Assembly: GCA_036556205.1 (NCBI GenBank)
Contig: DATBJW010000015.1
Location: forward strand, 9,674-73,673
DNA: 64,000 nucleotides
Origin: Gemmatimonadota bacterium
GTDB taxonomy: Bacteria; Gemmatimonadota; Gemmatimonadetes; JACCXV01
Reading direction: 5' to 3'
Shown: one piece after another, positions 35,285 to 55,474 of the stretch
Layout of the letters: every line of letters begins with the position of its first letter
Numbering within the stretch: position 1 is the first letter of the stretch
Position numbers and translations under genes: made by a program
The notes under the pieces: model-generated
Database searches by the model: none
What the model saw: the letters and a program-made list of their open reading frames with translations, nothing else
Told to the model about the DNA's origin: nothing

Positions 35285-36475
35285 TCAGGAGTCTCCGCGG
35301 GCGGTGCCCGGCCCGGCCGAGGGCGGCGAATCCGCCGCGCCTTCGTCGTCCGCCGCGCCCGCTGCCCCGTTTCCCCCCGAGCGTCCGGGCCGGCCCGCCT
35401 CGGCCGCCCCGCGCGCCGGCGGGAACTCGTTGAAGTAGAAGTTGCCCTGGATCACGAGCTTGGGATCCGGGAACCCGGTCGGCAGAGGCTCGAAGTCGGC
35501 CGACCCGGAGACGGCGTCCGGCGCCACGTGACGCAGCTCGAGCACGCCCTGGTGGCCGACGATCGCGACCGACTCCAGCTGCCCGCTGGGCAGGATCGTG
35601 AAGCGCACCTGGGTCGTCCAGGCGGCGATCCCGTACCAGAAGGCGCTGGGGAGTATCGTCCACGTGTAGTCCTCGATCTGCCGCTTGAGCCGCGTCATGT
35701 AAGGCGCGTAGTCCCAGGCGTACGTGCTCAAGCTGAAGTCCTCGTCGAAGCGCGCGCGCGTCAGGCGGTTGTCCACCTGCGGCAGGCCCCGGCGACCCGT
35801 GCCGGGGGCGCCCGCGTTCCGCGGCGGCGCGCTGGCGGGCGGCAGGGTCACTTCGTGGCGCGGGAGGGCGAGGCGACTGTCCCCGAGCGATGAGCCCGTC
35901 CCCACCGGGGGCGCCTGAGCGAGCCGGCTCGGATCCGCTCCCTGGGCCAGCTCGCCCGAGCTGCCGGGCTCGACACCGCTCGCCGCGTCCGGCTGGTCGG
36001 CGGCCCCCGGCGCCTCTGCCTGCGCGCCCCCGGCTGCCGGCGGGCGAGCCTCCTGCGAGGCCCTGGCGGGCGGCTGGGCGCCGGGAGCGGCCCGCTCACG
36101 CGGACCGTCGTCGCGGCCGCCCTCCCCGGGTGTCGGGTTCGGCAGGCTCGTCTCGCCGCGGTTGAACGGGTCGCCTTCGGGAAGGTCGCGCGGGCCGCGG
36201 TCGGCCGCCCGCGAGTCGCGCTCGGAGACCAGGTTCGTGGGCTCCTCGGGCGCCCGCTCCGGGGCGCCGGAGGCGTCCACCAGCATCCTGGGCGCCTCCG
36301 CGGGGTTCAGGAGCCGCACGTTGACCGGCTCGGGGTTCGGGAAGAGCTCGGCCAGCCTCGCCGTCGCGCCCTCGTCCCTGGGCGCGGCGAACCCCGTGAC
36401 CACGAGCACCAGGATCAGCGCGTGGAGCAGGAGCGAGAAGACGAAGGGCGAGATGCGGCCGTCGCGTCGGAGCAT
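35285..36475 (-). CDS. TonB-like protein (N-terminal anchor, Pro/Ala/Gly-rich linker, TonB_C-like domain)
   Basis: N-terminus ISPFVFSLLLHALILVLVV, then a long low-complexity proline-rich spacer. The C-terminus TTQVRFTILPSGQLESVAIVGHQGVLELRHVAPDAVSGSADFEPLP resembles a TonB C-terminal fold. Confidence 0.5.
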   Translation of the reverse strand: MLRRDGRISPFVFSLLLHALILVLVVTGFAAPRDEGATARLAELFPNPEPVNVRLLNPAEAPRMLVDASGAPERAPEEPTNLVSERDSRAADRGPRDLPEGDPFNRGETSLPNPTPGEGGRDDGPRERAAPGAQPPARASQEARPPAAGGAQAEAPGAADQPDAASGVEPGSSGELAQGADPSRLAQAPPVGTGSSLGDSRLALPRHEVTLPPASAPPRNAGAPGTGRRGLPQVDNRLTRARFDEDFSLSTYAWDYAPYMTRLKRQIEDYTWTILPSAFWYGIAAWTTQVRFTILPSGQLESVAIVGHQGVLELRHVAPDAVSGSADFEPLPTGFPDPKLVIQGNFYFNEFPPARGAAEAGRPGRSGGNGAAGAADDEGAADSPPSAGPGTARGDS

Positions 36476-36656: not shown

Positions 36657-38138
36657 TCAGAACCCTCCGGCGTGGGCCTCTTCGGCCTTGCCGGGCGCGT
36701 TGCCCTCCACGAAGTAGCTCTGGCAGGCGCGATCCAGCAGGGTCTTCGACAGCACGGCCGGGACGCCGTAGAAGTTGGCGTAGTCCACGAGCTGGTCCAT
36801 CAGGTCGCGCGGGTGGCAGGAGCGTGGCTGGAGGCCCATCTCGCCGTAGTAGCGCTTGTACAGGTAGGTCACCGCCTCGGGGACGAACTTGATCGCCTTC
36901 GCGCGGCAGACGTTGAACAGGATCTGGCTGAACTCTTCGCGGGTCGGGTCGTCGGCCTTGACCTTGTAGCGGATGCGACGGAAGAAGGCCTCGTCCACCA
37001 GCTCGTCGGGGTCCAGGTTCGTCGCGAAGATGAGCAGGCAGTCGAAGGGCACCGGGAACTTCTTCCCGGTGTGCAGCGTGAGGTAGTCCACGCGCTTCTC
37101 GAGCGGCACGATCCAGCGGTTCAGCAGGTCGACCGGCTGCACCAGCTGGCGCCCGAAGTCGTCCAGGATGAACACGCCCCCGTTCGACTTCACCTGGAAG
37201 GGCGCCTCGTAGAACTTGGCGATCGGGTTGTAGCGCAGGTCCAGCATGTTCAGAGTGAGCTCGCCCCCGGTGAAGACCGTGGGCCGTCGGGTGTGGCACC
37301 AGCGCGGGTCGGTGGACTCGCGGCCGCCCTTCCAGAGCCCCGTGGACGGCACCTCGCCTTCCTCGGGGTCGCTCTCCTGGTGGTAGACGGGATCGAAGAC
37401 CTTGATGATCTGGCCTCCCACCTCGATCGCGTACGGCACGTAGATCTCGCCCCCCAGGAGGCCCGCGATCGTCTCCGCCACGAGCGTCTTCCCGTTCCCG
37501 GCCGGCCCGTAGAGGAACAGCGACTTCCCGGAGTTCACCGCCGGGCCGAGCATCATCAGGAAGCGGTTCGAGAGCACCAGGTGCGAGAACCCGCGCCGCA
37601 GGTCGTCCCACGAGATGCGGGTCGTGTTCACGGTCTGGCGGCGCACCCAATCCGCGTAGACGTCCAGCGGCACCGGCGCGGGCCCCACGTACTGGCAGCG
37701 ATCCAGGGCCTCGCGCGCGCGATCGCGCCCGTGGCCGGTGATCGCGTAGCGGTAGAAGGCGCGACCGTTTCCGTCCACGGTCTTCACCTCCACCTCCTTC
37801 TCACGCTTCAGGTGCTCGAGCAGCGCGTCCACGACGGTGAACGGGAGTGCCATCTGCTGCGACGCCTGCAGGGCGTTCAGGTCGCCCTGGGAATAGAAGG
37901 TCTTGATCAAGAGCTCGAGGACCAGATCCTCGGGAAGCCCGGTCTCCTCGAACGTGCGCGGGGCCTGCGGGAAGTCCGCCGCCTCGATCGCGAAGTCGAC
38001 GGCCGTAGGCAGCGGAGGGTCGCCGAGAACGGGACCCGCGTCGAAGTCCGAGGCGGACGCGGCAGGGGGCCGTTCGGATGTCGGAGCGGAGGGGCGGCCG
38101 GCAACGGCGGCCAGCTGACGGACGGCTTCGGGGGTCAT
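36657..38138 (-). CDS. AAA+ ATPase (MoxR/AAA_5-like core with N-terminal helical domain), translationally coupled to the Tad TPR gene
   Basis: Trimmed to MTPEAVRQ (start 38138, ATGA overlap with the upstream gene). Walker A LYGPAGNGKTLVAE, Walker B VFILDDFGRQ, then LLNRWIVPLEKRVDYLTLHTGKKFPVPFDCLLIFATNLDP..LVDEAFFRRIRYKV. No hydrophobic segments. Confidence 0.8.
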   Translation of the reverse strand: MTPEAVRQLAAVAGRPSAPTSERPPAASASDFDAGPVLGDPPLPTAVDFAIEAADFPQAPRTFEETGLPEDLVLELLIKTFYSQGDLNALQASQQMALPFTVVDALLEHLKREKEVEVKTVDGNGRAFYRYAITGHGRDRAREALDRCQYVGPAPVPLDVYADWVRRQTVNTTRISWDDLRRGFSHLVLSNRFLMMLGPAVNSGKSLFLYGPAGNGKTLVAETIAGLLGGEIYVPYAIEVGGQIIKVFDPVYHQESDPEEGEVPSTGLWKGGRESTDPRWCHTRRPTVFTGGELTLNMLDLRYNPIAKFYEAPFQVKSNGGVFILDDFGRQLVQPVDLLNRWIVPLEKRVDYLTLHTGKKFPVPFDCLLIFATNLDPDELVDEAFFRRIRYKVKADDPTREEFSQILFNVCRAKAIKFVPEAVTYLYKRYYGEMGLQPRSCHPRDLMDQLVDYANFYGVPAVLSKTLLDRACQSYFVEGNAPGKAEEAHAGGF

Positions 38139-39316
38139 CACGGACCTTGGGGTCGGAGGGTGGACGGAGCGGCGGCCGGCGGCGACTCGCGCCGCGCGCC
38201 CACCTTGGCGGGCTGCGCCGAGTGCGGGACCGCGGCGCCGCTCTCGGGCGCGGCCTCGCCGGAGGCGCCGGCGGGCACGGTCGGTTCGGGCTCGACGGCC
38301 GGGGCGGAAAGCGCTTGCAGCGCGCGCTCGTCGGAGAGGCGGCGGCGGGCGTCCCGCAGGTTGCGGGCGATCTCGCGGTCGCCGGGGGCTATGACGGCGG
38401 CCTTCTCGAAGGCCAGCGCCTCGGCTTCGGTCTCGCCACGGAAGCGGTGCACGAGGCCCAGGTTGTTCCAGGCCTGCGCTTCGGGGCCCGCCCGGCGGAA
38501 GGCGGCCAGGGCGCTGTCGGGGAGGCCCTGATAGCCGGCCGCCAGGCCCAGGTTGTTGAGCAGGGCCGGCTCGCCGGGCGCCAGGGAGAGGCCGCGCGCG
38601 AACTCGTCGGCGGCCTGCGCGTAGCGCTCCTGGAGCAGCAGGTTCCAGCCCAGGTTGTTGGCGTAGTCCCAGCGCCGGGGATCGAGCTCCACGGCCTCGC
38701 GCAGGGCGTCCTCGGCCTCGGGGTAGCGCTTCAGGAGGTCCAGGGCGATCCCGCGGTAGCTCCAGGCCAGCGCGTCGCCGGGCGTCACGCGGCACGCCTC
38801 TTCCAGGTACGGCAGGCCGAGCTCCGGCGCCCCCGCGTCCACCCACAGGCGGCCCATCTCGCGGCCGATCTCGGGGTTGCGGGGGTCGAGAGAGAGCGCC
38901 TCCTCGTAGTGGCGCAGGGCCAGGTCGTAGATGCGCTCGCGGTGGTAGGCGCGGGCGAGGGCGAGCTGGGCCGCGCCGCTATGCGGGTCGCCCGCCGCTT
39001 GCGAACGCGCGTCGGTGACCGCAGGCGTGTCGGCGCCGCCCGACTGGGCGGGGCGGATCTTCACCTTGCCGTCTTCGTCCTTGAGCTCGACCAGCTGCTC
39101 GTCCGTGAGGCCCGGCTCCGCCGACGAGACGGCCACGGCCGCGCTCGAATCGGCGGGCCCGGCCGCCGGGGTCTCGGCGGGGGCCGCGTTCGCTGGGCGC
39201 TTTCCTTCGGGGAGGGGGGTAATGAAGGGAGAGCGCTCCAGCTCCACCCGCTTCGTGCACCCGACGGCCAATGCCGCGCCGATCACGAGAGCCATCCTGA
39301 CTTTGCGCTGCATCAT
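38138..39316 (-). CDS. TPR-repeat lipoprotein (TadD-like position)
   Basis: Trimmed to MMQRKVRMALVIGAALAVGC (lipobox). Several TPR units (ALARAYHRERIYDLALRHYEEALSLDPRNPE..., AWSYRGIALDLLKRYPEAEDALREAVELDP...). Follows tadC. Confidence 0.65.
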   Translation of the reverse strand: MMQRKVRMALVIGAALAVGCTKRVELERSPFITPLPEGKRPANAAPAETPAAGPADSSAAVAVSSAEPGLTDEQLVELKDEDGKVKIRPAQSGGADTPAVTDARSQAAGDPHSGAAQLALARAYHRERIYDLALRHYEEALSLDPRNPEIGREMGRLWVDAGAPELGLPYLEEACRVTPGDALAWSYRGIALDLLKRYPEAEDALREAVELDPRRWDYANNLGWNLLLQERYAQAADEFARGLSLAPGEPALLNNLGLAAGYQGLPDSALAAFRRAGPEAQAWNNLGLVHRFRGETEAEALAFEKAAVIAPGDREIARNLRDARRRLSDERALQALSAPAVEPEPTVPAGASGEAAPESGAAVPHSAQPAKVGARRESPPAAAPSTLRPQGP

Positions 39317-47345: not shown

Positions 47346-47522
47346 TCAGCTCCCGAACGGAAGCGTGGCCACGATGTTGTTGTAGAATCCGACCAGTCCG
47401 CCGCCGAACGCGGCGACTGCGCCGATAACGGCGATGGCGATCAGCCCGATCAGCAACGCGTACTCGGCCAGGTCCTGGCCAGACTCGTCTGCCACGAGGT
47501 TCCCAGCCTGCGGGCCAGCCAT
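47346..47522 (-). CDS. flp: Flp-family type IVb pilin (58 aa)
   Basis: Trimmed from track ORF 47346..47705: MAGPQAGNLVADESGQDLAEYALLIGLIAIAVIGAVAAFGGGLVGFYNNIVATLPFGS. Same G/QDLAEY motif. RBS GGAGG upstream. Confidence 0.88.
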   Translation of the reverse strand: MAGPQAGNLVADESGQDLAEYALLIGLIAIAVIGAVAAFGGGLVGFYNNIVATLPFGS

Positions 47523-47634: not shown

Positions 47635-47650
47635 AGCAACGGGCGTGCCC
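47635..47650 (-). promoter_or_regulatory. Sigma-54-type (-24/-12) promoter upstream of flp genes
   Basis: Minus strand reads ctGGGCACGcccgTTGCTtc versus consensus TGGCACG-N4-TTGCW. GG and GC are correctly spaced, with only the first T mismatched. Lies about 110 nt upstream of the first flp ATG. Confidence 0.45.
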
Positions 47651-48086: not shown

Positions 48087-49040
48087 TCAGTTGTCGAGCC
48101 GGTAGTCGCGAACCTTGTTCAGCAGCGACTTGTAGCTCACACCCAGCTCCAGCGCCGCCGCTTTCTTGTTCCAGCGCGTGCGCTCGAGCACGCGCTGGAT
48201 CGCGCGGGCCTCGGCCTTCTGAGCGGCGACCTTCGAGATCTCGGCCAGCTTGGTCCCCTCGGGATAGTCCTCGGTGTCGTAGCCGTTGCGCGACTGGCGG
48301 TGCCAGATCTTCTCCTCGAGCTCGCGGCGGATCGTGCTCTCGTCTTCCATCACCAGGAAGCGGCGGATGACGCGCTCGAGCTCGCGCACGTTGCCCGGCC
48401 AGGAGTACAGCTTGAAGAGATCGATGAGGCTCGCCCGCAGCTGCTTGATCTTGCTCGAGTAGAAGGGCGAATAGAGCTGCATGATGTGCTGCGCGAGCAG
48501 GCCGATGTCCTCGGGGCGCTGGCGCAGGGGCGGGAGCGTGACGGCGACCGCGGCACGCTCCTCGGCGATGCCGCGCAGCAGCTTCTTGACGGCGCCCTCG
48601 TGGTCGGGCGTCTCGCTGGAGAAGATGAGCCGCGGGGCTTCGTCCGGCGGGTCGCCGTCGAAGAGCGCGAGCGTGGTCCCGAAGCGCTCGCAGACCTCGG
48701 GGCTGAAGGTCTCGACACCGTTGACGAACAGTGTGCCGCGGCGCGCGCGCTCGAAGGGTGTCGTGGCCTCGGGCGCGTGACCGAAGAGCTCCGTGCCGAG
48801 CTGCCCGCGCGGGACCACGTAGCAGTTCACGCGTACGAAGGAGCCCGCCGAGCGCGGCGAGAGCCGGTGCAGCGTGTGCGCGAGCGCCTCCTTGCCGAGA
48901 CCCTTCTCACCCGTGAGCACGACCGGCACGCGGGTGGGTGCCACCTCCATCAGCTTGTCTCGGATCTGGAGCACCCGGTCGTTGACCGAGAGCAGAAAAT
49001 CGGGATGGGCGCCTTCGTCCCAGTAGGATGTCGATTCCAT
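48087..49040 (-). CDS. Sigma-54 activator-like (bEBP-like) Fis-family regulator with degenerate AAA+ core, no sensory domain
   Basis: Trimmed to MESTSYW (start 49040). The AAA+ core aligns to the NtrC family (VVLTGEKGLGKEALAHTLH, ELFGH, PPLRQRPEDI, WPGNVRELE). The C-terminal HTH_8 is RTRWNKKAAALELGVSYKSLLNKV. GAFTGA is absent (ELFGHAPEATTPFERA), and Walker B is LFVNGV instead of LFLDEI. Confidence 0.85.
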   Translation of the reverse strand: MESTSYWDEGAHPDFLLSVNDRVLQIRDKLMEVAPTRVPVVLTGEKGLGKEALAHTLHRLSPRSAGSFVRVNCYVVPRGQLGTELFGHAPEATTPFERARRGTLFVNGVETFSPEVCERFGTTLALFDGDPPDEAPRLIFSSETPDHEGAVKKLLRGIAEERAAVAVTLPPLRQRPEDIGLLAQHIMQLYSPFYSSKIKQLRASLIDLFKLYSWPGNVRELERVIRRFLVMEDESTIRRELEEKIWHRQSRNGYDTEDYPEGTKLAEISKVAAQKAEARAIQRVLERTRWNKKAAALELGVSYKSLLNKVRDYRLDN

Positions 49041-49111
49041 CAACGACGTCGTGTGCGGGTGGGTGGAAGCCGATTTCAGGAAGGGAGAACAGCAAGAACG
49101 ATGCCCGAAAT

Positions 49112-49148
49112 GGAACGAGGGAGCCCACTTTTGGGGCTCCCTCGTTCC
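49112..49148 (-). terminator. 15-bp perfect-stem hairpin downstream of the Phe-rich protein gene
   Basis: GGAACGAGGGAGCCC-acttttg-GGGCTCCCTCGTTCC. On the minus strand it is followed by ATTTCGGG. Confidence 0.55.
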
Positions 49149-49224: not shown

Positions 49225-50742
49225 TCAGCTTCCCAGCGTCTGCCTCAGCAACCTGTCGGCGTAGGGCTCCGCACCCACGCCGCTCAGCAGGGAGCGCGCG
49301 GCGTCGAGCTCGCCGCTGAACAGATACAGGACACCCAGGTCGAAGCGGCCGTCCAGATCGTCCGCCCGGTGCCGCACGTAGTCCTCGAGGCGACCCTGCA
49401 CCTCCCGGAAGGCGGTGCGCGATCCGAAGAGCGCGGGGGCGTCGAACACGACGACCTCGTCGGGCGCGTAGTCGTCCACCCCGCGCCGGAAGGCGACCGC
49501 CGCGTCGCCGTAGCGGCCGAGCGCCAGCAGGGCCATCCCGCTCGCCAGCTCGCCGCGCCCGTCGTCGGGCGCTTCGCGCGCGAAGGCGTCGAAGGCCGAG
49601 AGCGCGGCCGCGAAGCGTCCCGCCGCCATCTGTCGCCGGCCCTCGTCGAAGCGGGCCGAGGCGGGGAACGCGGCACCCGGAGGAGCGTAGCCGTAGTCGG
49701 GCTCAGCGTAGCCCTGGAGATCCATGCCGTAGCCGGCGCTCGAGCCGTTCTCGACCCCCGACGAATAGCCTTGGTTGAAACCGTTCTGGTATCCGTTCGC
49801 GTAGTCGAGGCCGGAGTTGTAGTAGGACGACGTCCAGAAGCCCGGCCAGCCCCAGTAGAGGCTCCAGTACCCCGGGCCGAAGAAGACCGGCCGCCCGAAG
49901 CCGAACCGGTAATTGAAGAAGAAGGGATCGCCGTAGACGAAGCGGTGGCCGAAGAAGAACGGATCGCCGTAGAAGAACGATCCCCCGACGAAGAAGCCGC
50001 CGTTGAAGAAGAAGGGATCGGCCACGAAGAACGGATCGAACACCACGACCGTGTTGCCGTGATGGTGCAGGCTTCGCTTGTGCCAGTCGCTGGAGTCCCA
50101 GCCGTGCACGGGCAGCGTTCCCGCCGGCAGGAAGCGCTTGCCGCCGGCGCCGGAAAGTGAGCCGCGGCCCGAGCTGGAGCCGGAGCTGGAAAGGGAGCCG
50201 CGGCCGGAGCCGGAAAGCGAGCGGCGACCGGAGCTGGAAAGGGAGACTCGTCCCGAGACGGCCTGATCGGACCCGGCGAGCGCCAGCGTCGTAACCGCAC
50301 GACCGCGCGTCGTCGGGAACTGCGGCGAGAGCGTGCTCACTCCAGGAGGCACGGCCTTCAGCCCGCTGCTGCCCTGGCCGGCGGTCCACATCCCCAGGGT
50401 CGCCGGGGCACTGGCCACGCGCCCGCGACCGGGGAAGCTCGGGGAGAGCGTGGGCGCGTTCAGAGCCGGCCGGCCGCCGGAGGATCCAAGTGTGGCGAGC
50501 CCGCTCGGCGAGCGCGGCGCCGCGGCGGAGCTCATGCGCCCCGAGGATGACCGGCCGAAAGAGCCCGACGAGCGGGGTGCCGTGACCGGACCCATGCGTC
50601 CCGCGGAAGACCCGCCGAAGGAGCCCGACGAGCGGCCGCCGCGCGAGCCCATCGTGGACTTCTGTGCCTCGAGCGTGGCGGCGAAAGCGGCGACGAGAGC
50701 GAGCGCGAGCGTCGCGCGGCGGGCGAAGCGGGAACGGCTCAT
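49225..50742 (-). CDS. Secreted low-complexity protein: Ser/Gly/Arg-rich region, DPFFF aromatic repeats, Tyr/Gly/Asn-rich region, TPR-like C-terminus
   Basis: Trimmed from track ORF 49225..52128 to MSRSRFARRATLALALVAAFAATLEAQ (signal peptide). High GC3 throughout. See findings. Confidence 0.75.
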   Translation of the reverse strand: MSRSRFARRATLALALVAAFAATLEAQKSTMGSRGGRSSGSFGGSSAGRMGPVTAPRSSGSFGRSSSGRMSSAAAPRSPSGLATLGSSGGRPALNAPTLSPSFPGRGRVASAPATLGMWTAGQGSSGLKAVPPGVSTLSPQFPTTRGRAVTTLALAGSDQAVSGRVSLSSSGRRSLSGSGRGSLSSSGSSSGRGSLSGAGGKRFLPAGTLPVHGWDSSDWHKRSLHHHGNTVVVFDPFFVADPFFFNGGFFVGGSFFYGDPFFFGHRFVYGDPFFFNYRFGFGRPVFFGPGYWSLYWGWPGFWTSSYYNSGLDYANGYQNGFNQGYSSGVENGSSAGYGMDLQGYAEPDYGYAPPGAAFPASARFDEGRRQMAAGRFAAALSAFDAFAREAPDDGRGELASGMALLALGRYGDAAVAFRRGVDDYAPDEVVVFDAPALFGSRTAFREVQGRLEDYVRHRADDLDGRFDLGVLYLFSGELDAARSLLSGVGAEPYADRLLRQTLGS

Positions 50743-50805
50743 GGGCGGCACCGGAAGAGGTCGTGGCGACACAACAAATATACGTGCCAGGCCCCCGCAT
50801 GTTCC

Positions 50806-52152
50806 ATGAGGATGCGACCGGCCTCCCCGGGAGACCTTTTTCCAGCCCGCCGCGGGGGGGCGGTCCGCTGGCGCCACCCTCCCGGCGACCCCATTTTGGG
50901 CCGCGTGACCAACCCCCTCGCGCCCGGCGCGGCACTCGTGGCGGCGCTCTGCCTGGCCGCCCCCGCGCGCCCCGCGCTCGCCCAGGCCAATGCGCTCGTC
51001 TCTCAGGCGCGCGAAGTCCAGCGCGCCGTCGAGGAGATCCGCGAGCTCGCCTTTCAGCACGCCGTGCCCATGCAGGTCGCCGACCGCGCGGCCATCCGCG
51101 CCTACGCCGTGGCACGGCTGGATCACGAGTACTCGCCCGCCGAGTTCCGCGCCAAGTCGGAGTCGCTCATCGCCTGGGGCTTCGTCCAGCGTCCCTTCGA
51201 CATGCGGACCTTCTACGAGGAGCTGCTCTCGGAGCAGATCGGGGGCTACTACGACCCCTTCCAGGGCGTGTTCTTCATCGCCGACTGGCTTCCGGCCATG
51301 CTCCAGAAGCCGATCATGGCTCACGAGCTGACCCACGCGCTGCAGGACCAGCACTTCCAGCTCCGGCCGCTCCTGCTGGGCGTCAAGTCGAACGACGACG
51401 CCTCGCTCGCGGGCACGGCGGTCGTCGAGGGCGAGGGCCTGGCGGTCATGATCGACTACGCGCTGCGTCCGGTCGGAATCGTTTTCGAGAGCGTCCCGAA
51501 CCTGGAGTCGCTGATCGACAGCCGCTTCCCGGCCGACAGCGCCGGGTACAGGGTCTTCGCGAGCGCCCCGCCGCTCGTCAAGCAGACGCTGCTCTTCCCC
51601 TACCTGCAGGGGCTCCTGTTCGTGCGCGCCGCCAAGCTGCACGGCGGCTGGCCCGCCGTCTCCGCGCTCTACGACTCGCTGCCCGCCTCGACGGAGGAGG
51701 TGCTGTGGCCGGAGCGGTACTTCGAGACGCGCGACCGTCCGACCCCCGTGACGCTCCCGGACCTGGCTCACGTGCTGGGGTCGGGCTGGCGGCATCTCGA
51801 CACGAACGTGCTGGGAGAGCTCGCCGTCAGGGTGATGCTCGAGCGGGCGCTTCCGACCGCCGAGGCCCTGGAGGCGGCGCGGGGATGGGACGGCGACCGC
51901 TACGACCTGTACGAACGGCGGCGGGGCGAGACGGCGCTGGTGAGCGTCTCGGTCTGGGATACGGAGGCCGACGCCGAGGACTTCGAGCGCGGCTGGCGGC
52001 GGGTGCTCGAGGCCGATCCCGGAACGCGCGGGGCCTACGCTCTCCGGCGCGACGGAGCCGGGGTGACGGGCCTGCTCCATGTGCCGGGCGGCAAGGTCGA
52101 AGCGGTCTTCCGCGCCCTCGCCAAGCACGCGCCCGTGGCGGCCGTTCCGTGA
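50806..52152 (+). CDS. Putative secreted zinc metallopeptidase (HExxH)
   Basis: Signal-like APGAALVAALCLAAPARPALAQA. Motif IMAHELTHALQDQ, with downstream VVEGEG as a possible third ligand. Family not assigned. The start may be GTG 50905. Confidence 0.55.
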   Translation: MRMRPASPGDLFPARRGGAVRWRHPPGDPILGRVTNPLAPGAALVAALCLAAPARPALAQANALVSQAREVQRAVEEIRELAFQHAVPMQVADRAAIRAYAVARLDHEYSPAEFRAKSESLIAWGFVQRPFDMRTFYEELLSEQIGGYYDPFQGVFFIADWLPAMLQKPIMAHELTHALQDQHFQLRPLLLGVKSNDDASLAGTAVVEGEGLAVMIDYALRPVGIVFESVPNLESLIDSRFPADSAGYRVFASAPPLVKQTLLFPYLQGLLFVRAAKLHGGWPAVSALYDSLPASTEEVLWPERYFETRDRPTPVTLPDLAHVLGSGWRHLDTNVLGELAVRVMLERALPTAEALEAARGWDGDRYDLYERRRGETALVSVSVWDTEADAEDFERGWRRVLEADPGTRGAYALRRDGAGVTGLLHVPGGKVEAVFRALAKHAPVAAVP

Positions 52153-53507
52153 CCGGCCGCCGGGTCGCCCTCGCGCTGGCCGCCTGCCTGCTCGGCGTCC
52201 CCGGCGCCGGCCACGCGCAGGGGGTGGGCGAGCGCTTCACGCTCGCGGCCGGAGCGCGCGACCTCTCCCTCGACGAGGCGGTCTCGATCGCCCTCGAGGA
52301 CAATCCGGACGTCCGCTCCTCGCGCTTCCGCTTCGACGCCACCCGGGCCGGCCTGTGGGAGGCGTACGGCAACTTCCTGCCGCGGCTGAACCTGTTCGGG
52401 GCGATCCAGAAGAGCGGCGCCGGCCAGTTCGTGGTGGGCGGCATCACGGTCCCCAACCCGCAGACCTACACCACCTTCTACGAGTTCGACTTCACGCACC
52501 GTCTGTTCGACGCCGGGCGCGACTTCTTCCGGGTGGACATCGCGCACGCGGAGCGCCGGGCGGCCGACGCGCAGCTCGAGGCCGACCGGCTGCGCATCGC
52601 GAGCGACGTCAAGCGCGCGTACGTGGCCGCTCTCGCGGCCGAGGCCCTGCGGCAGGAGCGCGAGCAAGAGATCGAGGAGCGCAAGACGCGGCTGGAGCTG
52701 GCCCGCGCGCGCTTCGACCTGGGCTCCGTGACGCGCTCCGACGTGCTCCAGGCGCAGATCGCCGTCTCGCAGGCCGAGGTGGACCGCGTGAATGCCCAGA
52801 AGGAGGTCCAGACCGCCAAGCTCGATCTGCTGCGCACGATGGGCGTCAGCGCGGATCCCGACTCCGTGCGGCTGGCGCAGGGACTGGCGGTCTTCGAGCC
52901 CACCTGGGACGCGGACTCGCTGGTGACGCTGGCGTTGACCGAGAACCCGGCCCTCACCCGCCTGCGCGCCCTGCGCGACCAGCGCGACAGCGAGAACTGG
53001 ATCGCCAAGACCTCCTACCTCCCCACTCTGGAGGCTGGCGCCTCGTTCTCGCACAGCGTGTCGGACACGACCGAGCTCCTGTTCCAGGATTTCGAGTACC
53101 GGTCCTTCTACAGCCTGAGCCTGAACTGGGAGCTCTTCGGCGGCTTCTCGCGCATGAACGAGACGAGCCGCGCGAAGGCCGAGCTGCGCGCCGCCGAGGA
53201 GGCGCTGCGGGGAGGCGAGCTGGCCACCGAGGCCGATGTGCGCCAGGCGCACTTGAACCTGCTCGCGGCCTACCAGACGCATCTGGCCAGGAAGGCGAGC
53301 GTGGAGCTGGCGCGGACGGAGCTGGACCTGGCGCAGGAGCGCTACCGCATCGGCGCGCTCTCGTTCCCGGACCTGCTGGCCTCGCAGGTCACGCTGACGA
53401 TCGCCGAAACGGACTTCATCCGCTCGGGCTTCGACTTCTTCACGGCCCTGATCGCGCTCGAGGAAGCCTCCGGCCAGGCGCTGGTTCCCTCCCGGACGGC
53501 ACCATGA
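52149..53507 (+). CDS. TolC-family outer membrane efflux protein
   Basis: GTG 52149 overlaps the previous stop (GTGA). Signal peptide ALALAACLLGVPGAGHAQ. Typical LSLDEAVSIALEDNPD start and two coiled repeat halves. Confidence 0.88.
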   Translation: MTGRRVALALAACLLGVPGAGHAQGVGERFTLAAGARDLSLDEAVSIALEDNPDVRSSRFRFDATRAGLWEAYGNFLPRLNLFGAIQKSGAGQFVVGGITVPNPQTYTTFYEFDFTHRLFDAGRDFFRVDIAHAERRAADAQLEADRLRIASDVKRAYVAALAAEALRQEREQEIEERKTRLELARARFDLGSVTRSDVLQAQIAVSQAEVDRVNAQKEVQTAKLDLLRTMGVSADPDSVRLAQGLAVFEPTWDADSLVTLALTENPALTRLRALRDQRDSENWIAKTSYLPTLEAGASFSHSVSDTTELLFQDFEYRSFYSLSLNWELFGGFSRMNETSRAKAELRAAEEALRGGELATEADVRQAHLNLLAAYQTHLARKASVELARTELDLAQERYRIGALSFPDLLASQVTLTIAETDFIRSGFDFFTALIALEEASGQALVPSRTAP

Positions 53508-54775
53508 CGCACAAACGCCGGTACTGGATCGGAGGCGGGACGCTGCTCCTGCTGGCGGCCGTGGCCGCGGTCGTCGTCGCGCGACGGCGGGCCGCCGACA
53601 CGGTGAAGGTCGAGGTGGAGTCGCTCCAGCGCCGGCCCCTGGTGGCCGTCGTGACCGCCTCCGGCGAGATCCAGCCCGTCAAGTCGGTGAACGTGAACGC
53701 CAACGTGAATGGAACCGTGGACACGGTCGCGGTGAAAGAAGGTCAGGCCGTCGAGCAGGGCGACCTGCTGCTGCGGATCGACCCCATCCCCGCCGAAGCC
53801 GCCGCCGAGGCTCAGGCGGCCCAGGTGCGCTCGAGCGAGGGGGACGTGGAGGCCCTGCGCGCGGACCTCGCGCAGGCCCAGCGCGATCTGGAGCGCGGGC
53901 GCCAGCTCGCCTCGCGCGATCTGATCTCCAAGGAGGAGCTGCAGCGCCTCGAGACGACCCGGGCCCAGGCGCGGGCCCGCCTCTCGGCCGCGCAGGCGCG
54001 CGTGGAGTCGGCCCGCGCGAGCCTCAAGAGCAGCCAGCACGAGCTGTCCAAGGTCACGGTCACGGCACCCGCCTCGGGTGTGATCACGCGACTCGACGTC
54101 GAGCAGGGGGAGTTCGCCTTCACGGGTCTCAACCCCACCCTGCTGCTCACGATCGCCAACCTCTCGACGCTGCAGGCGGAGATCGAGGTGGACGAGACCG
54201 ACGTCGTCAACGTTCAGCCCGGGCAGCCGGCCAGGGTCACGGTGGACGCCTTCCCCGACACGACCTTCACCGGCGAGGTCACCGAAGTGGGAACGAGTCC
54301 CATCGTCAAGGCCGGCGCCGAGGCGACGCGGGAGGACGAGGAGGTGAAGGACTTCAAGGTCGTGGTGACGCTGAACCAGTCGCTCCCGGCCGTGCGCGCC
54401 GGTCTCTCGGCGACCGCCGACATCGAGACCGCGCGACGGGAGAGCGCGCTGGCCCTGCCCATCCAGTCGCTGGTCGTCCGCGAGCAGCCCCGGCCGAAGA
54501 TCGGCGAGGCTCCGCCGGACACGCTGGGCCCCGGTGAGGAGACGGAGGGCGTGTTCGTCGTGCGCGCGGGGCATGCCCGCTTCGTCCCCGTGCGCGTGGG
54601 GATCGCGGGCGACCGCTTCTTCGAGGTCCTGAGCGGCGTCCAGCCCGGCGACAGCGTGGTGACCGGCAGCTACGAAGCGCTGCGCGAGCTCGAGGACGGC
54701 GATCGGATCAAGATCGAGAAGCCCGAAGCCAAGAAGGATCACCGCCGGGGCGTGGCCGAGGCGCAGGCGGGCTGA
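53504..54775 (+). CDS. Periplasmic adaptor (HlyD/MacA-type membrane fusion protein)
   Basis: ATGA overlap. N-terminal anchor, lipoyl-like hairpin (VNANVNGTVDTVAVKEGQAVEQGDLLLRID), coiled coil, and ITAPASG-like VTAPASGVITRL. Confidence 0.88.
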   Translation: MTHKRRYWIGGGTLLLLAAVAAVVVARRRAADTVKVEVESLQRRPLVAVVTASGEIQPVKSVNVNANVNGTVDTVAVKEGQAVEQGDLLLRIDPIPAEAAAEAQAAQVRSSEGDVEALRADLAQAQRDLERGRQLASRDLISKEELQRLETTRAQARARLSAAQARVESARASLKSSQHELSKVTVTAPASGVITRLDVEQGEFAFTGLNPTLLLTIANLSTLQAEIEVDETDVVNVQPGQPARVTVDAFPDTTFTGEVTEVGTSPIVKAGAEATREDEEVKDFKVVVTLNQSLPAVRAGLSATADIETARRESALALPIQSLVVREQPRPKIGEAPPDTLGPGEETEGVFVVRAGHARFVPVRVGIAGDRFFEVLSGVQPGDSVVTGSYEALRELEDGDRIKIEKPEAKKDHRRGVAEAQAG

Positions 54776-54778
54776 GCC

Positions 54779-55474
<696 letters not shown>

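Follow-up and report, generated by a model that had tools for sequence, protein, structure and literature searches.

A predicted exported tetratricopeptide repeat protein with a phenylalanine-rich core is encoded beside a Tad pilus locus in Gemmatimonadota

The tetratricopeptide repeat (TPR) pilotins TadD/CpaO, PilF/PilW and Tgl are exported proteins encoded with pilus loci. The gene considered here resembles them in these respects; it lies beside a set of Tad pilus genes in a 64,000-nucleotide stretch (the window) of contig DATBJW010000015.1 from a Gemmatimonadota bacterium. Unlike the window protein, however, the pilotins have no aromatic or cationic low-complexity region, and current models of the Tad machine include no comparable component (PMC13170226). 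An identity with TadD/CpaO was considered and rejected, since the window protein contains no Cys and hence no lipobox, its gene stands upstream of the gene for an enhancer-binding protein (EBP) and not after tadC, and the locus has a separate TPR lipoprotein (38141-39316), to which the window protein shows generic TPR similarity (E 0.006). No TadD chain occurs among the PDB matches at E up to 1, and the automatic JGI label 'Flp pilus assembly protein TadD', carried by a fragment 73% identical to the window TPR domain, is a generic TPR annotation. We tentatively suggest that the protein may be non-enzymatic and periplasmic and may associate with itself, serving a Tad-linked envelope island as scaffold or adaptor.

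The gene is real, protein-coding and under purifying selection. Its G+C content at third codon positions (GC3) is 0.88, compared with 0.63-0.80 in four overlapping open reading frames (ORFs) and 0.92-0.97 in neighbouring genes, in agreement with the first-pass annotation of this DNA, which had taken high GC3 as a sign of real coding. The ratio of nonsynonymous to synonymous substitution rates (dN/dS) over the whole gene is 0.33 against the orthologue at locus L001 (87% amino acid identity) and 0.30 against that at L002 (62%), and the indels relative to the L001 orthologue measure 3, 3, 9 or 12 nt, all multiples of three. By region, dN/dS against L001 and L002, respectively, is 0.14 and 0.19 in the TPR domain, 0.30 and 0.18 in the aromatic block, 0.35 and 0.45 in the Ser/Gly/Arg tail, and 0.98 and 0.35 in the Tyr/Gly/Asn segment. 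The listed ORF reaches 52128, an artefact of high G+C; a start at 50742 is supported because the homologues have the same N-terminus. In addition, protein P0001 on a JGI metagenome contig is identical to the window protein. The annotation had left room for a frame that was not conserved or lacked homologues; homologues exist, and the frame is kept among them. Each of the four regions that it placed after a signal peptide was found in the 505-aa translation, and its impression that the protein is not enzyme-like fits what appears to be a non-enzymatic protein built of modules, exported and ending in TPRs.

The family to which the protein belongs is small. A word-indexed search returned five clusters at 100, 87, 62, 60 and 43% identity, one of them named 'MAG: tetratricopeptide repeat protein [Gemmatimonadetes bacterium]' (MAG, metagenome-assembled genome), while among 1.84 billion representatives, searched exhaustively with a profile, six members lay at E <1e-30, followed by generic TPR proteins only. 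A scan of 185,579 species genomes gave two loci, both in Gemmatimonadota MAGs, and one further member was supplied by locus L014. The family thus totals 10 members, every one from Gemmatimonadota-type contigs, and confinement to one clade of Gemmatimonadota is the best explanation for this distribution. Literature searches on DUF8575, Gemmatimonadota Tad pili and phenylalanine-rich exported TPR proteins gave no description of the family. Two sub-clades can be distinguished: in sub-clade A (the window protein and P0002-P0004) the core is rich in Phe and contains 4-6 DP[FYWL] motifs, a Cys pair is absent and a linear motif occurs twice, whereas sub-clade B (P0005-P0009 and the L014 member) has an Arg/Tyr-rich core (…RYRYFDRYRYFGGFGCGFYDRYF…DPCFS…), a Cys pair and one motif copy. 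Common to all 10 members are an AQK[ST]xI junction, the linear motif, many Gly, Pro, Asp and aromatic positions of the core as far as WPGFW, the GxxxG register and the TPR domain, whose signature RF-x-LG-x-x-Y-x-x-x-GE is found in the window protein and the nine other members.

The aromatic core of the window protein comprises 72 aa, of which 31% are Phe, 18% Gly and 10% Pro, with DPFF at aa 236, 242, 260 and 272. Since none of 100,000 shuffles of the block reproduced four or more DPFF, the array is not a chance product of composition, and the only four matches to DP[FYW][FYW] in the six frames of the window all lie inside this gene. At the DNA level the core contains a 36-nt tandem duplication (49915-50038, 3.4 copies) that encodes the 12-aa unit F-x-Y-G-D-P-F-F-F-G-H-R, and the repeat structure indicates that the array arose by recent tandem duplication of this unit. 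Between sub-clades the core is 42% identical; across the 10 members 17 of its 72 columns are invariant, a density above that of the TPR domain (25 of 145), which marks the core as a sequence-specific element and not merely a compositional one. No match to it was found in Pfam, NCBIfam or PDB. Upstream of the core lies a cationic tail (S 25%, G 20%, R 10%), with 19 Lys and Arg against one Asp or Glu and a net charge of about +18, which includes a 36-nt tandem repeat at 50143-50214 (the GRGSLSSSGSSS part). This tail is only 30% identical between sub-clades, with 43% gapped positions. Kept inside this otherwise fast-evolving region is the linear motif [ST]-[LIV]-[SA]-P-x-F-P-x-[RK]-G-R, found in all 10 members with P101, F103, G107 and R108 invariant; a second copy is confined to the window protein, P0002, P0003 and P0004. 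In the basic junction between tail and core, K202 and R223 are invariant, and the corresponding stretch of the other sub-clade is Arg/Asp-rich.

Beyond the core, Y318, G321, G325, G329 and G333 are invariant, and aa 317-333 read G-x3-G-x3-G-x3-G-x3-G, a segment that AlphaFold2 models, with low confidence, as a helix. The region from aa 305 to 360 is 20% Gly, 16% Tyr, 12% Ser and 9% Asn, and its linker portion varies widely between sub-clades (23% identity, 33% of positions gapped). The helical, TPR-like C-terminus noted in the first-pass annotation is borne out by a match to Pfam PF14559 (TPR_19) at aa 372-428 (31.8 bits versus a cutoff of 25), with TPR_16, TPR_14 and TPR_2 slightly under their cutoffs, and by eight helices modelled over aa 363-503 at a predicted local distance difference test (pLDDT) score of 80-96 in two AlphaFold2 runs. 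The first of these runs used the full-length window protein with a 9-sequence family alignment, and the second a trimmed sub-clade-B member with the Cys pair. The NCBIfam matches were weak, being to TPR models (MamA, YbgF, PrsT) and to FliH. The top Foldseek matches in PDB were a designed consensus TPR (CTPR), TTC0263, MamA, PEX5 and OGT (probability 1.0, E ~3e-3), and at the sequence level a profile run against the whole of PDB gave nothing but generic TPR proteins (best E 3e-4). The profile match above cutoff, together with the modelled stack of helical repeats, places the domain in the TPR superfamily. It is 50% identical between sub-clades, and the models suggest a four-repeat docking domain of a distinct subtype and of the peptide-binding type; in fold it resembles peptide-binding TPR proteins only.

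Export through Sec and signal peptidase I (SPI) is the best explanation for the N-terminus, which has a basic n-region, an Ala/Leu hydrophobic core and then A-x-A, followed by an AQK-T junction that is invariant in 9 of 9 aligned members. Pfam and NCBIfam searches found no beta-barrel or C-terminal sorting domain in the window protein, nor was any outer-membrane-crossing signal recognisable in it; the periplasm is therefore the default location. TPR domains are typical of periplasmic proteins, and from this, the predicted SPI signal and the lack of a lipobox, barrel or sorting domain we infer a periplasmic protein. The Cys residues of sub-clade B lie 18-22 residues apart within the core, and both are absent from sub-clade A; this all-or-none pattern fits a disulfide, and hence an oxidising extracytoplasmic compartment. 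As a separate observation, Gln occupies position +1 of the predicted SPI site (marked here by a slash) in each of the four exported proteins whose sequences at this locus were read by eye: LEA/QKST in this gene (50662-50664), ALA/QAN in DUF8575 (~50983), and GHA/QGV and LRS/QEP at the outer membrane efflux protein (OEP) and secretin N-termini. The orthologue at locus L015 (L015 6361-7251) also has +1 Gln (ARA/QVV). This anecdotal pattern resembles the Bacteroidetes 'Q-rule'; the abstract of the Q-rule paper (PMC5837995) describes the rule as not valid across the whole FCB group, and its text makes no mention of Gemmatimonadetes. The positions of all features are collected in Table 1.

Table 1. 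Positions in the window of the gene, its protein modules and the neighbouring features.
Feature	Position	Strand	Basis or remark
Whole gene, predicted exported aromatic-rich TPR protein	49225..50742	-	505 codons plus stop; translation
Signal peptide, aa 1-26 (MSRSRFARRATLALALVAAFAATLEA)	50665..50742	-	Predicted SPI site LEA/QKST, read from sequence
Cationic Ser/Gly/Arg low-complexity tail, aa 28-200	50143..50661	-	Composition; predicted disordered
Conserved linear motif copy 1, TLSPSFPGRGR, aa 98-108	50419..50451	-	Alignment
Conserved linear motif copy 2, TLSPQFPTTRGR, aa 137-148	50299..50334	-	Window sub-clade only
Basic, His-rich junction, aa 201-232 (GKRFLPAGTLPVHGWDSSDWHKRSLHHHGNTV)	50047..50142	-	Alignment
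Aromatic core, aa 233-304, four DPFF, ends in invariant WPGFW	49831..50046	-	Alignment, composition
GxxxG-repeat segment, aa 305-335 (…GYQNGFNQGYSSGVENG)	49738..49830	-	Invariant glycines
Acidic Tyr-rich linker, aa 336-360	49663..49737	-	Poorly conserved
C-terminal TPR domain, aa 361-505, D-A-P-A-L-F-G-S-R…RFDLGVLYLFSGE signature	49228..49662	-	Pfam, AlphaFold2
EBP gene, AAA+ domain and HTH_8, 317 aa, downstream of this gene	48087..49040	-	Pfam
Divergent operon: DUF8575 (HExxH, signal peptide), OEP, MFP, ABC ATPase	50806..55474	+	Pfam on orthologous loci
TATATT, -10-like box inside conserved CGTATATTG, 35 nt upstream of ATG	50777..50782	-	Putative function
Candidate terminator, 15-16-bp GC-rich hairpin then AUUUCGGG, 77 nt after stop	49112..49148	-	Putative function; T-tract weak
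GGGCAT-N5-TTGC box before EBP gene	49091..49106	-	Invariant in window, L001, L002 and distant L004

On the minus strand the gene is followed, in order, by the EBP gene, flp, prepilin peptidase, RcpC/CpaB, secretin, TadZ, TadA, TadB, TadC and the TPR lipoprotein, with flp and the tad genes running from 47520 down to 38141 (-). The first-pass annotation correctly put the Tad regulator on one side of the gene and a divergent protease/efflux operon on the other; this operon comprises DUF8575, OEP, a membrane fusion protein (MFP) and an ATP-binding cassette (ABC) ATPase. Conservation of the linkage to tad genes, which it had proposed as a check, was found in eight distinct loci: the arrangement of tad/EBP, this gene and the divergent DUF8575-OEP-MFP-ABC operon holds in 8 of 8 loci with usable flanks (the window, L001, L002, L003, L004/L005, L008, L014 and L016, with L008 assigned by ORF sizes and a hidden Markov model (HMM) match only). 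Every informative locus carries both tad and DUF8575-operon neighbours. A metagenome scan with the DUF8575 profile found 3 distant loci only, none with a family member, and DUF8575 genes at 35-42% identity, which follow selB or form part of a Pup-proteasome locus, are not accompanied by efflux, TPR or tad genes. DUF8575 identity is 64-100% in 14 clusters and then drops sharply to <=46%, a gap that delimits the clade. Outside it, locus L015 has a DUF8575 that is 46% identical and different outer flanks (TrkH/TrkA), yet its slot between EBP/tad and the DUF8575 operon is occupied by a protein of 296 aa that begins with a signal peptide and has a TPR domain of the same subtype (E 8e-14 and 36% identity against window aa 361-499). 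This orthologue has a modest Trp/Phe/Tyr stretch only, with no Ser/Gly/Arg tail and no DPFF, which indicates that the low-complexity elaborations came after both the slot and the TPR module. A DUF3108 gene (L015 7285-8004, +) is inserted there between the TPR gene and DUF8575.

The sole upstream element shared by the window, L001, L002 and L003 is CGTATATTG, which contains the -10-like box. Downstream of the gene, the candidate terminator hairpin has a folding energy of -37.7 kcal/mol (z -5.5; 0 of 200 shuffles as stable) and is kept in L001 and L002. The gene has a -10-like box of its own, and the hairpin separates it from the EBP gene, which apparently has another promoter; it therefore looks monocistronic, and its control region is probably common to it and the divergent DUF8575 operon. 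A sigma-54 promoter for the gene (TGGCACGTATATTTGT at 50774-50789, with 2 mismatches) was rejected, as its TGGCAC half is not conserved in L002 and L003, and sigma-54 matches across the window occur at the level of chance (15 found, 15.2 expected). The GGGCAT-N5-TTGC box before the EBP gene is of sigma-54 type, and a similar box, GGGCACGCCCGTTGCT, precedes flp at 47635-47650. The EBP itself is receiver-less; its GAFTGA loop (ELFGHAPEATTPF) is degenerate, as is its Walker B, in which LFVNGV replaces D-E.

Among the other neighbours, DUF8575 (50806-52152, +) is a highly conserved, predicted exported HExxH protein (66-92% identity within the clade) in which HELTHALQDQ is invariant; its match to the archaeal NCBIfam 'Hvo_1808 family surface protein' (E 1e-43) is below cutoff. 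The ABC ATPase of the operon measures 231-238 aa, and no FtsX/MacB-type permease gene adjoins it in the window (52150-55474, +), L001, L002, L004, L014 or L015, which suggests that the membrane component of the pump is encoded elsewhere or is unconventional. Only one clear Flp pilin ORF is readable in the window (47346-47520, -; …ESGQDLAEYALLIGLIAIAV…), and two adjacent flp genes were called in each of L001, L002, L004 and L016. Directly after tadC, the TPR lipoprotein (38141-39316, -) has the lipobox LAVGC and a Pro/Ala/Ser-rich linker of ~100 aa. Its best NCBIfam matches are PilW-, MamA- and Tgl-type, and it is likely to be the true TadD or pilotin of the locus. Downstream of it, an ORF for an AAA-type ATPase (stop at 36657) is followed by a TonB-like ORF (35285-36475).

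The combination of an aromatic stretch with this TPR subtype extends beyond the family. A wider set was defined as the profile-search matches with a single C-terminal match to an HMM of the TPR domain only, covering at least 105 positions at no less than 50 bits. Outside the family this set numbers 15 proteins, and 10 of them contain a 40-aa stretch with at least 33% F/W/Y, compared with 2 of 129 other TPR matches (Fisher p 2e-10); this enrichment is partly built in, as the search profile contained the aromatic block (ascertainment bias). Examples are P0135 and P0107 (Tyr, 53-55%) and P0123 (Trp, 47%), while in P0027, P0057, P0122 and P0138 a Trp/Asn stretch is preceded by Pro/Arg-rich repeats; those members of the set that were read have N-terminal signal peptides. 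A TPR signature, …[FL]YGDP..F..Q...LE.YV..HP.D..ARFLL.Y.Y.FSG…, is shared across the wider set, and a word-indexed search for the subtype gave 13 matches with no useful names. The uncharacterised, predicted exported proteins P0135, P0107, P0123, P0027, P0057 and P0094 have the same order of parts as the window protein, namely a signal peptide, a low-complexity region that is often cationic or Pro-rich, a 33-55% F/W/Y stretch and a TPR domain of ~140 aa. They differ in that the TPR domains are only 26-35% identical, the aromatic parts are unalignable and Tyr or Trp takes the place of Phe. That exported proteins of several lineages join an extremely aromatic segment to one particular TPR subtype may point to a design principle of envelope proteins not described before, in which the segment could serve as an internal ligand, as a means of oligomerisation or as a cohesive element.

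The suggestion of a scaffold or adaptor follows from the presence of three potential self-association elements together with a docking domain, and membership in a conserved island of tad, EBP, this gene and the divergent DUF8575, OEP, MFP and ABC genes points to pilus-related adhesion or envelope organisation. Under this proposal the protein would remain periplasmic or lie against the inner face of the outer membrane, and its TPR domain might bind an extended peptide, for which the candidates are the linear motif of the family, the HExxH protein encoded next door and a component of the Tad system or secretin. Oligomerisation, or contact with the membrane or with the hydrophobic Flp pilin, could be driven by the aromatic core together with the GxxxG helix, and the Arg-rich tail could tether the protein to anionic envelope polymers. 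Several points weigh against this proposal. No such protein is required by the well-studied Tad systems, and this locus already encodes an ordinary TadD-like lipoprotein; the gene, being seemingly monocistronic, would not be co-transcribed with tad. Synteny is also weaker than it looks, as the housekeeping flanks beyond the efflux operon (MnmA and a cysteine-desulfurase-like gene) are syntenic in four loci too, so that part of the arrangement reflects conserved gene order in a narrow clade, and L015 is the single outgroup locus in which this inertia is broken. In addition, AlphaFold2 gave confident models for the signal peptide and TPR domain only: residues 26-360 of the window protein fell below a pLDDT of 50 (~30 in the tail, <50 in the linker), the sub-clade-B run gave the same picture, and the core scored ~25 in both runs, with alignments that held only 8-9 sequences.

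There are several other potential explanations. It is possible, but in our view unlikely, that this is an extracellular adhesive or matrix protein, which would assemble into an amyloid-like, hydrogel or coacervate material by means of its aromatic block and Arg-rich tail and so complement Tad adhesion. The Arg/Gly/Ser tail and the Phe/Tyr-rich and Tyr/Gly/Asn/Gln/Ser segments would suit cation-pi assembly, the core of sub-clade B is Arg/Tyr-rich (e.g. RYRYFDRYRYF), and of the four regions scored on an aggregation scale the core ranks first in mean value; the gene also adjoins an adhesion-pilus locus, and the recurrence elsewhere of an F-, Y- or W-dominated stretch beside the TPR subtype suggests that composition matters. 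The first-pass annotation had likened the composition to functional amyloids, and the protein does share with curli CsgA, Fap, TasA and chaplins predicted export, repeats, an aggregation-prone composition and a surface-adhesion context. However, no curlin, Fap, TasA or chaplin match was found in Pfam or NCBIfam even at E up to 10, the neighbours (tad, EBP, DUF8575, OEP, MFP and ABC ATPase) include no CsgG/E/F/B- or FapF-type partner, and no partner or sorting signal of the type IX secretion system (T9SS) type was found. The block is Pro/Gly/Asp-rich and, unlike functional amyloids, has no Gln/Asn ladder repeats; with 28% Pro+Gly, Asp-Pro before each Phe run, and stretches free of P/G/D/E/K/R that are mostly 3-4 and at most 6 residues long, it is unlike classical cross-beta cores. 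Neither AlphaFold2 model, with the core at a pLDDT of ~25, contains a beta-rich prediction, conservation is positional and not only compositional, and TPR domains commonly occur in periplasmic proteins. These results lend the functional-amyloid reading no support, and a classical amyloid is disfavoured, although self-association driven by the composition of the Arg-rich tail and the aromatic core is conceivable.

The tiny size of the family might instead indicate a generic periplasmic TPR protein with lineage-specific, largely neutral low-complexity expansions, adjacent to tad through conserved gene order. The fast-evolving, indel-rich tail and linker, the apparently recent tandem duplication behind the DPFF array, the outgroup orthologue with neither tail nor DPFF block, and the syntenic housekeeping flanks would all fit this explanation, which we nevertheless consider improbable given the low dN/dS of the core and its invariant columns across sequences that are ~40% identical, the conserved linear motif and mature N-terminus, and the retention of the slot in L015 despite different outer flanks. 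Ties to the divergent operon are a further matter, because every locus has a short shared divergent promoter region (34 to ~200 bp by gene calls), the hairpin and the separate EBP promoter isolate the gene from tad, the pairing persists in L015, and the disordered tail contains a conserved dibasic-like motif. The protein could accordingly be imagined as a partner or substrate of that operon, either cleaved by DUF8575 (e.g. at FP-x-RGR) or expelled, whole or as a fragment, by OEP-MFP-ABC. Such a role seems quite unlikely to us: the distant DUF8575 genes have neither efflux genes nor a TPR neighbour, a permease gene adjoining the ABC ATPase is missing, and known substrates of MacB-type pumps are small peptides, compared with 505 aa here. 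The tad genes are, moreover, equally conserved on the other side, and the two linkages are not separable from these data. A bolder possibility, to which we attach very little probability, is an unrecognised class of envelope protein in which an aromatic 'sticker' core, an Arg-rich tail and a TPR domain would form a periplasmic or surface gel or condensate through cation-pi and aromatic contacts, organising or cementing pilus adhesion; other phyla would have versions of this design built on Tyr or Trp instead of Phe.

Should the protein act together with the Tad island, it would represent a new accessory component of a widespread adhesion machine in a poorly studied, mostly uncultured phylum; if the link is one of conserved gene order only, it would be a lineage-specific TPR protein with inflated low-complexity regions. 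In either case its composition and conservation are unusual, in a tiny family from uncultured organisms only. Two further known systems offer partial likenesses. The glycine-repeat helices of FliH, YscL and Yae1 (PMC2674601) share the GxxxG periodicity with the window protein, although this does not amount to family membership: Yae1_N scores 17.8 bits versus a cutoff of 27.5 (E 0.0028), FliH models score 10-13.5 bits versus cutoffs of 180-260, and FliH, YscL and Yae1 are cytoplasmic whereas the window protein is predicted to be exported. In composition alone, the Phe/Gly motifs, the Ser/Tyr/Gly/Asn/Gln segment and the Arg/Gly/Ser region recall the FG-nucleoporins and the FUS-type prion-like and RGG proteins, from which the window protein differs in its far higher Phe density, its positional conservation and its setting in a bacterial envelope, with no homology. 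With an aromatic core that is without a described counterpart, the protein is best filed among the TPR-containing envelope proteins encoded beside pilus loci.

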